Sequence record: Y10025.2
Direction: 5' to 3' (one strand)
Source of the DNA: Escherichia virus K5
Length of the DNA stretch: 2,863 nt
Part shown: positions 345-2,863 of the stretch, piece by piece
Layout: the number at the start of each line of letters is the position of its first letter
Numbering within the stretch: the first letter of the stretch is position 1
The notes under the pieces: model-generated
The model's database searches: none
The model's input: the letters and a program-made list of their open reading frames with translations, nothing else
What the model was told of the DNA's origin: nothing
Program-made: the position numbers and the translations under genes

Positions 345-367
345 CACTATAGACGAGATACAGGTAG
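345..367 (+). promoter_or_regulatory. SP6-type single-subunit phage RNA polymerase promoter, predicted +1 at G362
   Basis: ATTTACTGGACACTATAGACGAG matches the SP6 promoter ATTTAGGTGACACTATAGAAGAG at 19 of 23 positions, with the core GACACTATAGA fully conserved. It sits in an AT-rich non-coding spacer 76 nt upstream of the tailspike ATG, and is the only such motif in the window. Confidence 0.8.
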
Positions 368-426
368 TGCCGTTCTTTAGAGCGGCCTATTACTAGCCAA
401 TCTTCATAGGGAGGGTTGGGAAGTAA

Positions 427-432
427 TAGGAG
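427..432 (+). promoter_or_regulatory. Ribosome-binding site of the tailspike gene
   Basis: TAGGAG at 427..432, 5 nt before ATG 438. Confidence 0.6.
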
Positions 433-437
433 TTAGC

Positions 438-2336
438 ATGGCTAAATTAACCAAACCTAAGACTGAAGGAATCTTGCATAAAGGACAATCTTTGTATGAG
501 TACCTTGATGCGAGAGTTTTAACATCAAAGCCGTTTGGTGCTGCAGGTGACGCCACTACTGATGATACGGAGGTTATAGCTGCTTCACTAAACTCTCAAA
601 AAGCTGTCACAATCTCAGACGGTGTATTCTCTAGCTCTGGTATTAATAGTAATTACTGTAACTTAGACGGTAGGGGTAGTGGTGTGCTAAGTCACCGTTC
701 CAGTACAGGTAACTACTTAGTATTTAACAATCCACGTACAGGTCGCTTAAGTAATATTACGGTAGAAAGTAATAAGGCGACTGATACAACTCAGGGACAG
801 CAGGTATCTCTTGCTGGTGGAAGTGATGTTACTGTAAGTGACGTTAACTTCTCAAACGTTAAAGGTACTGGTTTCAGTTTAATCGCATACCCTAATGATG
901 CGCCACCTGATGGACTTATGATTAAAGGCATTCGAGGTAGCTATTCCGGCTATGCTACTAATAAGGCAGCCGGATGCGTACTTGCTGACTCCTCAGTTAA
1001 CTCCCTCATAGATAACGTCATTGCTAAGAACTACCCTCAGTTCGGAGCAGTAGAGTTGAAAGGTACAGCCAGTTACAACATAGTCAGTAATGTTATAGGG
1101 GCAGATTGCCAGCATGTAACTTACAACGGCACTGAAGGGCCAATAGCCCCTTCTAATAACCTTATCAAGGGGGTGATGGCTAATAACCCTAAGTATGCAG
1201 CGGTTGTTGCAGGCAAAGGAAGTACGAACTTAATCTCAGACGTGCTCGTAGATTACTCAACTTCTGATGCTAGGCAGGCTCATGGTGTTACCGTAGAAGG
1301 GTCTGATAACGTCATAAATAATGTGCTTATGTCAGGATGTGATGGTACTAACTCTTTAGGACAAAGGCAGACTGCTACAATTGCACGCTTTATAGGTACA
1401 GCTAATAACAACTATGCGTCTGTATTTCCTAGCTACAGTGCTACAGGTGTTATTACTTTCGAATCCGGCTCTACCCGTAACTTCGTAGAGGTAAAGCACC
1501 CTGGCAGGAGAAACGACCTTCTCAGTTCTGCTAGTACTATTGACGGTGCAGCTACTATTGACGGCACTAGTAATAGTAACGTAGTGCACGCACCTGCCTT
1601 AGGGCAGTACATAGGTAGTATGTCAGGTAGGTTCGAATGGCGGATTAAGTCCATGTCACTCCCTTCAGGCGTTCTTACTTCTGCTGATAAGTACAGAATG
1701 CTTGGGGATGGTGCTGTATCATTAGCTGTAGGTGGGGGTACTTCTTCTCAAGTTCGCCTATTTACTTCTGATGGTACTTCTCGGACAGTGTCCCTCACCA
1801 ACGGTAACGTGCGTCTTTCTACCAGTAGCACAGGCTATTTGCAGTTAGGTGCTGATGCAATGACCCCAGATAGTACTGGTACATACGCATTAGGTTCCGC
1901 CAGTCGAGCATGGTCTGGCGGTTTTACTCAAGCAGCATTCACTGTTACCTCAGATGCTCGGTGTAAAACAGAACCTCTTACTATCTCAGATGCCTTACTG
2001 GATGCTTGGTCTGAAGTTGACTTTGTGCAGTTTCAGTATTTGGATCGTGTTGAGGAGAAGGGTGCAGACTCAGCTAGATGGCACTTCGGTATCATCGCTC
2101 AGCGAGCTAAGGAGGCTTTCGAACGTCACGGTATAGATGCACATCGCTATGGCTTCTTGTGCTTCGACAGTTGGGATGATGTATACGAGGAAGATGCCAA
2201 TGGCTCTCGTAAACTGATTACACCAGCAGGTTCCCGCTACGGTATTCGTTACGAGGAAGTACTGATATTAGAGGCTGCGTTGATGCGGAGGACTATTAAG
2301 CGTATGCAGGAAGCACTAGCTGCCCTTCCTAAGTAA
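438..2336 (+). CDS. kflA: Tailspike protein, capsular-polysaccharide depolymerase (K5 heparosan lyase KflA-like), 632 aa, with C-terminal auto-cleaving chaperone module
   Basis: Complete 632-aa ORF with RBS and dedicated phage promoter. Residues 31-50 KPFGAAGDATTDDTEVIAAS are the N-terminal signature of right-handed parallel beta-helix depolymerases (pectate-lyase-like tailspikes). A Ser/Thr/Gly-rich stalk precedes a C-terminal segment matching the endosialidase/T5-fibre chaperone family. The gene symbol is from memory of K5 lyase, not from a search. Confidence 0.9.
   Translation: MAKLTKPKTEGILHKGQSLYEYLDARVLTSKPFGAAGDATTDDTEVIAASLNSQKAVTISDGVFSSSGINSNYCNLDGRGSGVLSHRSSTGNYLVFNNPRTGRLSNITVESNKATDTTQGQQVSLAGGSDVTVSDVNFSNVKGTGFSLIAYPNDAPPDGLMIKGIRGSYSGYATNKAAGCVLADSSVNSLIDNVIAKNYPQFGAVELKGTASYNIVSNVIGADCQHVTYNGTEGPIAPSNNLIKGVMANNPKYAAVVAGKGSTNLISDVLVDYSTSDARQAHGVTVEGSDNVINNVLMSGCDGTNSLGQRQTATIARFIGTANNNYASVFPSYSATGVITFESGSTRNFVEVKHPGRRNDLLSSASTIDGAATIDGTSNSNVVHAPALGQYIGSMSGRFEWRIKSMSLPSGVLTSADKYRMLGDGAVSLAVGGGTSSQVRLFTSDGTSRTVSLTNGNVRLSTSSTGYLQLGADAMTPDSTGTYALGSASRAWSGGFTQAAFTVTSDARCKTEPLTISDALLDAWSEVDFVQFQYLDRVEEKGADSARWHFGIIAQRAKEAFERHGIDAHRYGFLCFDSWDDVYEEDANGSRKLITPAGSRYGIRYEEVLILEAALMRRTIKRMQEALAALPK
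1533..1568. repeat. In-frame imperfect 18-bp tandem duplication inside the tailspike stalk
   Basis: agtactattgacggtgca (1533..1550) followed by gctactattgacggcact (1551..1568); the core tactattgacgg recurs exactly 18 nt apart (1535..1546 and 1553..1564), encoding STIDGA/ATIDGT. Confidence 0.6.
1953..2333 (+). other. C-terminal intramolecular chaperone / autoproteolysis domain (peptidase S74-like) within the tailspike; predicted cleavage between Ser505 (1950..1952) and Asp506
   Basis: Motif S-D-A-R-C-K-T-E-P then LDAW, HFGIIAQ, a conserved Cys and a C-terminal helix EAALMRRTIKRMQEALAAL, the pattern I recall from the K1F endosialidase chaperone domain. Placement at the extreme C-terminus after a triple-beta-helix-like stalk fits. 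Confidence 0.65.
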
Positions 2337-2341
2337 GCAAC

Positions 2342-2366
2342 AGGCAGTGCGTAAGCACTGCTTTTC
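2342..2366 (+). terminator. Intergenic stem-loop with GNRA tetraloop and U-tract: candidate partial terminator or RNA-processing/stability hairpin
   Basis: Perfect 7-bp stem GCAGTGC (2344..2350) / GCACTGC (2355..2361) around loop GTAA, extendable by A-U and G-U pairs at 2342..2343, followed by TTTT (2362..2365). Lies 6 nt after the tailspike stop in the 85-nt spacer 2337..2421. Confidence 0.55.
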
Positions 2367-2410
2367 ACGCAACTTTTCTTAAAGGTTATCATGGTGGTAG
2401 CCTTTCAGAA

Positions 2411-2417
2411 AAGGAGG
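2411..2417 (+). promoter_or_regulatory. Ribosome-binding site of the downstream tail gene
   Basis: AAGGAGG at 2411..2417, 4 nt before ATG 2422. Confidence 0.7.
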
Positions 2418-2421
2418 TTAC

Positions 2422-2863
2422 ATGCTACAAAGATTAAGCACCAAGTTGATACAGTATAATGGTGAGAAATTACATACATTAATAGAGCCTTTACTTGAAG
2501 AGGTTAATCCCATTATCCGTATACCAGAAGATTACCCTTCGCTGTATGCGGTTGGTGAGTACCTTACTACTGTAAGCTATGATAACCAAGCAGTAGTAGT
2601 TGAAGTGGCAGCTGGTACTTACAGAGAAACTAAGTCACTACATGAAGTATTTGGAACTAAGTTTGGTAACGGTCGCATACAGATAGTTGGTAAAGGTGTA
2701 GATGTCACTACCTTTGAGTTCTTGAAATGTGATGGAATATATGCAGGACATGGTACTTGTTTTGGTCATGCACCACAGTATCCTGTAAGTGGCGGTGACA
2801 TCCATCCTATCTTTAAGAATTGCACACTTAGTGGTATTAACCGAGATGATGCCCTAGATGATC
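2422..2863 (+). CDS. Second tail-protein gene, 5' portion only (147 codons, continues past the window end); likely an alternative receptor-binding protein of unknown specificity
   Basis: Strong RBS, ATG start, no stop through the window end (MLQRLSTKLIQYNGEKLHTLIEPLLEEVNPIIRIPEDYPSLYAVGEYLTTVSYDNQAVVVEVAAGTYRETK...). No phage promoter of its own, so probably co-transcribed from the promoter at 345..367. Function inferred from position only; no catalytic motif recognised. Confidence 0.75.
   Translation, partial: MLQRLSTKLIQYNGEKLHTLIEPLLEEVNPIIRIPEDYPSLYAVGEYLTTVSYDNQAVVVEVAAGTYRETKSLHEVFGTKFGNGRIQIVGKGVDVTTFEFLKCDGIYAGHGTCFGHAPQYPVSGGDIHPIFKNCTLSGINRDDALDD

Follow-up and report, generated by a model that had tools for sequence, protein, structure and literature searches.

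A one-promoter receptor-binding locus of coliphage K5 with the KflA capsule lyase and orf523, a candidate second spike gene

The stretch of DNA that was analysed here, referred to as the window, comprises 2,863 nucleotides of Escherichia virus K5 (record Y10025.2), and both of its ends are GATC sites. It carries a phage promoter (335-357), a 632-aa ORF (438-2336), a spacer of 85 nt and a second ORF that is open at the end of the window; all of the features that are described below lie on the plus strand. Across bases 1-2438, the window is ~98% identical to K1-5-like genomes, while the match of bases 2422-2863 to GenBank AF322018 ("Coliphage K5 orf523") is 100%, which bears out the kinship with known coliphages that was expected in the original prediction. 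That prediction had described the first gene as complete, the gap behind it as 85 nt and the second gene as partial, all of which agrees with the sequence: the gap is exactly 85 nt (2337-2421), and the second gene runs from 2422 to the open end at 2863, covering 147 of 523 codons. The second spike position (slot 2) was completed by joining the window to AF322018, which supplies the remaining codons as had been anticipated from flanking sequence, and the joined sequence has the gene order promoter, leader, slot 1, conserved spacer, slot 2 and gp48.

The window opens with the 3' end of a homologue of K1-5 gp44 (1-16), which aligns base for base with K1-5 positions 38933-38948, the end of the CDS at 38799-38948. 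The label of this gp44 homologue is holin in RefSeq, and a note in LL11 describes it as a candidate i-spanin. It is followed by an Rz-like spanin gene that is homologous to K1-5 gp45 (95-305; PHROG 8971, E=1.7e-38), and both genes confirm a phage rather than a bacterial context. The spanin gene is divided into two ORFs, 95-232 and 180-305, by an extra C at position 117; without C117, a 69-aa product is restored that is identical to K1-5 gp45. This base and another extra one, C90, were missing from all seven relatives that were checked, and both are probably sequencing errors.

The element at 335-357 (ATTTACTGGACACTATAGACGAG) covers positions -17 to +6 of a phage single-subunit RNA polymerase promoter of the K1-5/K1E/SP6 type with G352 as +1. 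An SP6-type promoter had been predicted at 345; the element is present, but it begins 10 nt earlier, at 335, and although the SP6-type assignment holds, K1-5/K1E-type is the closer label since positions -12 to -10 differ from SP6. It is identical to the K1-5 consensus ATTTACTGGACACTATAGAAGAG (23 bp, -17 to +6) at 22 of 23 positions, including all of those from -17 to +1, and to the SP6 consensus ATTTAGGTGACACTATAGAAGAG (23 bp) at 19 of 23. The promoter 18-mer occurs once in the window, for which 0.01 chance matches would be expected even when up to three mismatches are allowed. The promoter is intergenic and co-oriented with the genes, and its position overlaps that of a promoter annotated in the K1E record. 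In 15 of the 16 related loci, it was found at a matching distance of 84-86 nt ahead of slot 1; the one remaining locus, L019, is cut short upstream. The K1-5 genome, which encodes a single-subunit RNA polymerase (gp7), contains 12 clear copies of the promoter, all on the plus strand, and one marginal match with six mismatches within a gene. Motif scans detected no second phage promoter within the window, nor any in K1-5 from the spike promoter to the genome end. Judging from the sequence match and the conserved position, G352 is the inferred start of transcription. The transcribed leader would then be 86 nt long (352-437) with hairpins at 369-386 and 387-429 (MFE -32.8 kcal/mol, z = -4.6), and the 3' arm of the second hairpin covers 428-429, the first two bases of the Shine-Dalgarno sequence AGGAG (428-432). 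The leader is nearly invariant in eight phages including SP6, with 100% of cells paired and one compensatory pair, which occurs in SP6.

Slot 1 is occupied by kflA (438-2336), the gene for the precursor of the K5 capsule (heparosan) lyase tailspike (632 aa, 66.9 kDa). Residues 1-505 of KflA are identical to those of the crystallised K5A lyase (505/505; PDB 2X3H), the protein matches PHROG 14895 (tail spike) over its full length, as was expected of a tailspike, and 624 of its 632 residues are identical to K1-5 gp46. According to reviews (including PMC6872550), the K5 lyase cleaves K5 heparosan by beta-elimination. The first seven codons (438-458) encode MAKLTKP, an exact match of the heptapeptide that docks slot-1 spikes on the gp37 adapter and that is credited to Leiman 2007 in PMC6872550. 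The slot-1 N-termini fit MA[KRG]LT[KR]P across the loci, and in several relatives homology to the window stops at nt 451-463. Residues 506-632 (1953-2333) make up the C-terminal intramolecular chaperone or self-cleaving domain (Peptidase_S74, PF13884), the profile match being to residues 505-565 (E=1.5e-14), and this domain is related to the chaperone structures of phi29 gp12 and endoNF (3GUD, 3GW6). Both residues of the Ser/Lys self-cleavage dyad, S505 and K510, are present, and the 2X3H construct stops at S505, the predicted release point. Cleavage there would convert the 66.9-kDa precursor into products of 52.2 and 14.6 kDa, which agrees with the entry "67 / mature form 52" in a review.

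The conserved inter-spike spacer (2337-2421) is strongly folded according to prediction (MFE -35.3 kcal/mol, z = -6.7) and is identical to that of K1-5 at 82 of 85 positions. The Vectrevirus and SP6 loci have a spacer of 83-85 nt, and that of K1E-type phages measures 67 nt. Spacer hairpin 1 (2342-2365) consists of a core stem at 2344-2361 with a GUAA loop followed by UUUU (dG -14.8 kcal/mol, z = -4.0). Compensatory changes at three of its pairs were found in SP6 and CrRp3, and 98.9% of cells are paired compared to 36-59% in slid controls. The hairpin is labelled "terminator" in the LL11 record, and its position after kflA is that of a terminator- or attenuator-like element, which could be an efficient terminator; in K1E-type phages, its 5' arm is deleted and the slot-2 endosialidase is still encoded. 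Spacer hairpin 2 (2373-2413) is a predicted, interrupted 18-bp stem whose 3' arm extends into the Shine-Dalgarno sequence AAGGAGG (2411-2417) of the second gene. All of its 18 pairs are invariant in eight phages including Salmonella phage SP6, which amounts to strong conservation, yet not to covariation evidence. An Rfam search returned no match anywhere in the window.

The second gene, orf523, enters the window with its first 147 of 523 codons (2422-2863) and begins with MLQRLSTKLIQ (2422-2454), a variant of the slot-2 docking undecapeptide as judged from the family motif. The K1-5 peptide is given as MIQRLGSSLVK in PMC6872550, which refers to Leiman 2007; the K5 variant is identical to it at five of 11 positions and at seven of 11 to that of LL11/T147P9 (MLQRLSAYLVK). 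The slot-2 genes of all 16 loci open with M[IL]QRL[GS]xxL[VI], which orf523 fits. Homology with K1-5-like genomes stops at nt 2433-2444, ~12 nt into the gene. For the entire orf523 product, a right-handed parallel beta-helix was predicted confidently over the full length, resembling phage receptor-binding proteins and depolymerases, with residues 1-16 disordered in the model. Pfam searches assigned the protein to no family (Beta_helix 11.6 bits, the cut-off being 25.9), a PHROG search gave no match and a sequence search of the PDB gave no usable solved relative; a match to isovaleryl-CoA dehydrogenase in the latter (E about 1e-3) was dismissed as chance. A tblastn search against 50,697 phage records recovered only its own entry, and a relative was present in two of 5,426 E. 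coli genomes. Prophage spikes that resemble orf523 are carried by the E. coli genomes NZ_CP053079, NZ_CM128600 and GCA_014408065. Homologues in E. coli prophages are 60-69% identical, and homologues of orf523 occupy the tailspike position in prophages; moreover, bodies of this type are carried by three other virion anchors, namely Head_binding, Tail_spike_N and Phage_tail_fib N-termini. Many invariant polar residues are common to orf523 and spikes of 48-66% identity on functional-looking anchors. Additionally, a second K5-like copy of orf523 is identical at 1556 of 1572 nucleotides, with six amino-acid changes and an intact frame.

A literature search yielded nothing on orf523 or ORFP, and no second host of K5 was documented in the papers searched. 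The name ORFP for the second K5 gene, with its function unknown, is said to stem from Scholl in 2001, who also reportedly cited a report of K5 phage plating on K95 strains. A review from 2020 counts K5 as a one-spike phage ("1 TSP KflA"). The target of orf523 may not be a capsule; it may instead be an O-antigen, because the closest relatives sit on the tailspikes of P22-like and other temperate podophages. An attempt to read the substrate from the serotype of the prophage-carrying strains was abandoned, as 60-69% identity does not guarantee the same specificity.

The modular layout that was claimed for the K1E/K5/K1-5 group matches the one described in reviews for K1-5, K1E and SP6, phages of the Vectrevirus/Zindervirus type. 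Comparison of 16 related loci revealed that a common promoter, leader, docking peptides, spacer and downstream gp48 bracket the two slots, while the bodies in between comprise six unrelated genes in slot 1 and nine in slot 2, which occur in mixed combinations and therefore directly support cassette exchange. This comparison shows that the two slots are, as far as the sequences tell, exchanged independently of each other. Different relatives match different stretches of the window, i.e., 1-2438, 1-450 together with 2336-2436, 566-2322, 1-451/463, or only 2344-2436. The conserved blocks are shared by relatives whose hosts are E. coli, Citrobacter and Salmonella, and gp48 follows slot 2 in K5 and all of the relatives. 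When viral contigs were searched with the spacer hairpin, the scan gave 10 loci, about half of which were already in the set, so the estimate of diversity is that of a small sample. Of the "dual- or swappable-specificity" that had been proposed, the swappable part is thus upheld by the 16 loci; the dual part is documented in reviews for K1-5 and SP6, but not for K5.

The K5/K5A kflA-orf523 region itself (Y10025, AF322018; Clarke 2000, Scholl 2001, as covered in reviews) has the same sequence, with no substantial difference apart from the extra C90 and C117 of the window. The K1-5 gp46/gp47 locus (AY370674) has the same promoter, leader, heptapeptide, lyase (624/632), spacer (82/85) and gp48, but its slot 2 encodes an 811-aa K1 endosialidase instead of the 523-aa orf523, and, in the reviews (including PMC6872550), a dual host range established by experiment is given for K1-5 only. 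The K1E locus (X78310), with a 12-kDa ORF and an endosialidase, has the same promoter, leader, heptapeptide, spacer hairpin 2 and slot-2 motif; it differs in a slot 1 that is reduced to a 111-aa stub, a 67-nt spacer without the 5' arm of hairpin 1 and an endosialidase in slot 2. In Salmonella phage SP6, gp46/gp47 (SP6p49, SP6p50) have the same architecture: the leader is 84 nt and the spacer 83 nt long, hairpin 2 is identical, and the peptide reads MIQRLGSSLVK. Positions -12 to -10 of the promoter are different (ATTTAGGTGACACTATAG), and both SP6 spikes are directed at Salmonella O-antigens, as summarised in a review. The K5-lyase tail fibres of T7-like phages (Kayfunavirus), including PDB 9VVR, share the lyase body and the C-terminal chaperone (nt 566-2322 at 93-97% identity, residues 31-631 aligned). 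However, they carry a gp17-type N-terminal anchor of roughly 240 aa in place of the seven-residue docking peptide of KflA and belong to a single-spike system without an adapter.

These findings support the interpretation in the original prediction of a two-gene spike cassette of the K1E/K5/K1-5 group. The source is K5 (K5A) itself, whose receptor-binding locus the window carries, and we are highly confident in the full proposal of a one-promoter locus with KflA and a second spike, orf523, in which spike bodies are exchanged between fixed junctions. Late in infection, the SP6-like RNA polymerase of the phage would initiate at the promoter and read through the structured leader into kflA. The KflA precursor would trimerise with the aid of the chaperone domain, which would cleave itself off after Ser505 to yield the mature 52-kDa beta-helix enzyme, by which the heparosan capsule of K5 type is degraded, a chemistry that is adopted from the literature. 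The first seven residues would dock on the tail adapter gp37 as in the literature for K1-5, the motif being identical; the window contains no gene for the adapter or the RNA polymerase, and both are assumed for K5 from its relatives. Between the spike genes, the spacer hairpin with its U-run would probably attenuate transcription rather than end it, as the genes further downstream have no other phage promoter, and the second, invariant hairpin would adjoin the ribosome-binding site of orf523. The orf523 product, based on its motif, fold and homologues, would form a second beta-helix spike that docks through MLQRLSTKLIQ at the second site of the adapter. The promoter-leader-heptapeptide block, the spacer-undecapeptide block and gp48 would act as the fixed junctions between which the spike bodies recombine.

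An origin of the window from a K1-5-type dual K1/K5 phage, with an endosialidase as the partial second gene, would accord with the 98% identity of bases 1-2438 to K1-5 and its relatives. It is extremely improbable and was refuted by the end of K1-5 homology ~12 nt into the second gene and by the 100% identity of that ORF to K5 orf523 (AF322018), with no similarity to an endosialidase; furthermore, the lyase matches K5A KflA at 505 of 505 residues but differs from K1-5 gp46 at eight. It also appears unlikely that the locus forms two transcription units, with hairpin 1 as a full terminator and orf523 under a promoter of its own, be it a host sigma-70 promoter or one within the spacer that went unrecognised. 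The covariation in hairpin 1, its trailing UUUU and the LL11 terminator label would fit such an arrangement, as would a weak sigma-70-like match at 2364-2392. However, four U's followed by C make a weak terminator run, and K1-5, whose spacer is nearly identical, has no downstream phage promoter even though both of its spikes are on the virion according to the literature. The sigma-70 scan gave three sites compared to 5.1 in shuffled sequence, and the -35 hexamer of the match is not kept in K1-5 or K1E; this candidate promoter was rejected as weak and no better than chance.

The function of orf523 is more evenly contested. It could be a passenger without function, or a structural stub comparable to the 111-aa remnant in slot 1 of K1E, which would make K5 effectively mono-specific for the K5 capsule. 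Such a reading, which we regard as the less probable one, draws on a gene for which neither a substrate nor a second host is documented, on the single spike listed for K5 in the review, on its place outside Pfam and PHROG families and on the rarity of the module, i.e., its sole phage record and the two E. coli genomes with a relative. On the other hand, the frame of 523 codons is intact and the predicted beta-helix is confident over the full length, the docking motif has been kept, the polar residues that are shared with the 48-66% identical spikes are invariant, and the independent second copy has 16 nucleotide differences of which only six alter an amino acid. We judge the chances to be about even that K5 virions carry orf523 as a second, functional receptor-binding spike whose target is some polysaccharide other than heparosan.

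The locus is a known system that has already been published (Clarke 2000, Scholl 2001, Leiman 2007, Thompson 2010), and the window by itself adds nothing new on the two-slot system. This type of locus is a textbook case of how short-tailed phages alter or widen their host range via spike cassettes that are swapped between fixed junctions, a design that is in use by phage engineers, and its cassette linkers are conserved RNA hairpins with a putative role in expression. Orf523 is missing from recent catalogues, and its sequence and predicted fold point to a real receptor-binding protein. If it is a functional second spike, the phage that is classically used for typing as "K5-specific" would in fact have two specificities, and orf523 would found an uncatalogued family of beta-helix depolymerases.

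A megablast search of 50,697 phage records placed the window in the K1E/K5/K1-5 group, as the original prediction had proposed: from base 1 to about 2438 it shares 96-98% identity with 32 Vectrevirus genomes, among them K1-5 (AY370674 38933-41362, covering the gp44 end, gp45, the K5 lyase gp46 and the start of gp47). The K1-5 homology stops about 12 nt inside the second gene, and 2422-2863 matches GenBank AF322018 ("Coliphage K5 orf523 gene, complete cds") with 100% identity. Residues 1-505 of KflA, the first gene product, are identical (505/505) to PDB 2X3H, crystallised as "coliphage K5A lyase", while eight substitutions separate KflA from K1-5 gp46. 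The two identities and the gp46 differences identify the window as the kflA-orf523 region of phage K5/K5A; the same evidence and the end of homology rule out K1-5 as its source. GATC stands at both window ends (1-4 and 2860-2863), which suggests a cloned Sau3AI/MboI (or BamHI/BglII-compatible) fragment, fitting the original kflA clone.

On the plus strand, the window carries the 3' end of a small gene (1-16, the K1-5 gp44 end), a short frameshift-split gene for an Rz-like spanin (95-305, homologous to K1-5 gp45), the 632-codon kflA (438-2336), the inter-spike spacer of 85 nt (2337-2421) and orf523 (2422-2863), whose frame is open at the window end, as expected for the partial second tail-protein gene that had been predicted. 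A non-coding stretch of 132 nt lies between 305 and 438, and the minus strand has only short ORFs, each of them inside one of the large ORFs. AF322018 completes the second gene, and the small gene gp48 follows it in the K5 record and in all relatives. The context is that of a phage, with the gp44 end and gp45 upstream and gp48 downstream as in K1-5. Compared with K1-5, VEc3, LL11, T147P9, PSK8, CrRp3 and K1E, the window has two single extra C's (C90 and C117), of which C117 breaks the spanin gene by frameshift into two ORFs, 95-232 and 180-305; without C117, the gene again encodes a 69-aa protein that equals K1-5 gp45. Sequencing error in an old record probably accounts for the extra C's, although this K5 stock could truly carry a defective lysis gene.

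The first gene encodes a complete tailspike, as predicted from its 632-aa frame: KflA matches PHROG 14895 (tail spike) end to end. A Pfam Peptidase_S74 domain ("chaperone of endosialidase") covers its residues 505-565, and chaperone domains of known structure, from phi29 gp12 and endoNF, also match its C-terminus. Ser505 and Lys510 are the expected dyad, and the 2X3H construct stops exactly at residue 505. The predicted masses of the precursor (66.9 kDa) and the mature protein (52.2 kDa) fit the "67 / mature form 52" given in a review. The seven N-terminal residues are exactly MAKLTKP, the peptide by which the lyase attaches to the gp37 adapter (Leiman 2007, as cited in reviews).

The predicted SP6-type promoter was recovered as ATTTACTGGACACTATAGACGAG at 335-357, which occurs once in the window (0.01 matches expected by chance). 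From -17 to +1 it is identical to the K1-5 motif, with one mismatch at +3, and it shares 19/23 positions with the SP6 promoter; judged by sequence, SP6-type is thus a correct label and K1-5/K1E-type the more precise one. The K1-5 genome has 12 copies of the motif, all on the plus strand and all ahead of genes. The element lies 84-86 nt upstream of slot 1, the first spike position, in all related loci with upstream sequence, and the promoter annotated in the K1E record (1995) overlaps it. No further phage-type promoter was found in the window or downstream of the spike promoter in K1-5, and a sigma-70 scan of the window gave fewer sites than shuffled sequence. The +3 change, in the initially transcribed region, is A to C (GACGAG versus GAAGAG in K1-5 and most relatives; window 352-365). 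The K5 leader is also one base longer, with 86 nt versus 85 nt in K1-5 and most relatives.

The 86-nt leader before slot 1 and the 85-nt spacer before slot 2 are nearly invariant from K5 through Salmonella phage SP6, and each is predicted to form two hairpins (z = -4.6 and -6.7, respectively). Spacer hairpin 1 (2342-2363, plus strand, followed by UUUU) retains its pairing in SP6 and CrRp3, where three pairs carry compensatory changes; 98.9% pairing compares with 36-59% in slid controls, and the LL11 record labels the hairpin a terminator. K1E-type phages have a 67-nt spacer without its 5' arm, yet retain the slot-2 endosialidase, which indicates that hairpin 1 is dispensable for slot-2 expression; its role would be that of an attenuator. 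Spacer hairpin 2 and those of the leader show no variation save for one compensatory pair in SP6, so covariation says little about them, and a processing or translational role is presumed. In the long hairpins at 369-429 and 2373-2413, the 3' arm enters the Shine-Dalgarno of the following spike gene. From K5 to SP6, these two stretches are more conserved than the adjoining coding sequence. They could be targets of RNase III or elements that control translation, and a further role as homology arms for recombination is possible; no Rfam family matches the leader or spacer hairpins.

All that was predicted had already been published for these phages (Clarke 2000, Scholl 2001/2002/2004, Leiman 2007 and Thompson 2010, as cited in reviews); the observation is thus confirmed and its interpretation supported, for a known system. 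Of the proposed dual or swappable specificity, cassette exchange is borne out by the comparison of 16 loci carrying the same linkers, in which slot 1 holds six unrelated bodies and slot 2 nine, in mixed combinations, while dual specificity, in the accounts consulted, was demonstrated for K1-5 and SP6 and not for K5. The K5 lyase has four different partner spikes in slot 2, the LL11-type slot-2 spike has two in slot 1, and a 111-aa stub has two in slot 2. Such mixed pairings directly support, by comparison, two cassettes that swap independently between fixed junctions. In one locus (IMGVR_UViG_3300045988_001199), slot 1 (487 aa) and slot 2 (459 aa) encode paralogues that share 28.5% identity across 242 residues (E=5e-21), showing that one spike lineage can fill either slot.

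Which part of the window is matched depends on the relative. Several Escherichia, Citrobacter, Raoultella and Salmonella phages match from 1 to 432-463, Salmonella phage PST_H2 matches 2344-2436 only, and K1E-like phages match 1 to about 450 and about 2336-2436. In the K1E-type loci (K1E X78310 777-1179, L013, L016 and L018), slot 1 is the 111-aa stub, which is lyase-like in its first ~45 residues only (41% identity); in L013 its slot-2 partner is not the endosialidase. The stub and short spacer fit a deletion that took the spike body together with some of the terminator. T7-like Kayfunavirus phages and the 73-76-kb phages UE-M3 and UE-M6 match the lyase body alone (566-2322). In Kayfunavirus, the body and chaperone, without the first ~43 codons, have 92-97% nucleotide identity and are joined to an anchor of the gp17 type (compare PDB 9VVR). 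This is domain-level transfer across phage families.

For full-length orf523 (AF322018), sequence searches gave no Pfam match above threshold, no PHROG and no relative of known structure, and the 50,697 phage records hold it only in its own entry. A search of about 5.8 billion proteins gave ten relatives. The closest (99% identical) is encoded on a 1634-nt contig from a sequencing run (Logan SRR8048111), with the same spacer before it and the same gp48 gene after it; 1556/1572 nt are identical, and the 16 differences change only six amino acids and leave the frame intact. This second K5-like phage is the sole other occurrence of the gene across the collections searched. The remaining nine relatives are 48-66% identical in the body and have different, longer N-termini, three of which are recognised virion anchors (P22 Head_binding, Tail_spike_N and Phage_tail_fib). 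The orf523 N-terminus reads MLQRLSTKLIQ, compared with MIQRLGSSLVK in the docking undecapeptide of K1-5, and M[IL]QRL[GS]xxL[VI] starts every slot-2 gene examined. On this evidence, a real second spike is very probably what orf523 encodes. A 2020 review lists K5 with one spike only.

Two orf523 homologues occupy the tailspike position in E. coli prophages, and a relative is present in only 2/5,426 complete E. coli genomes. The orf523-like bodies lie at 3355-5283 in strain K56-43-un (NZ_CP053079) and at 6001-8109 in GCA_014408065.1; one is in a P22-like prophage at bioA/ybhB and has an Arc repressor gene as its neighbour, and the other is closely followed by a holin and lysis cassette. Since the spikes of phages of this kind usually target O-antigen, orf523 may, by analogy, recognise O-antigen rather than capsule.
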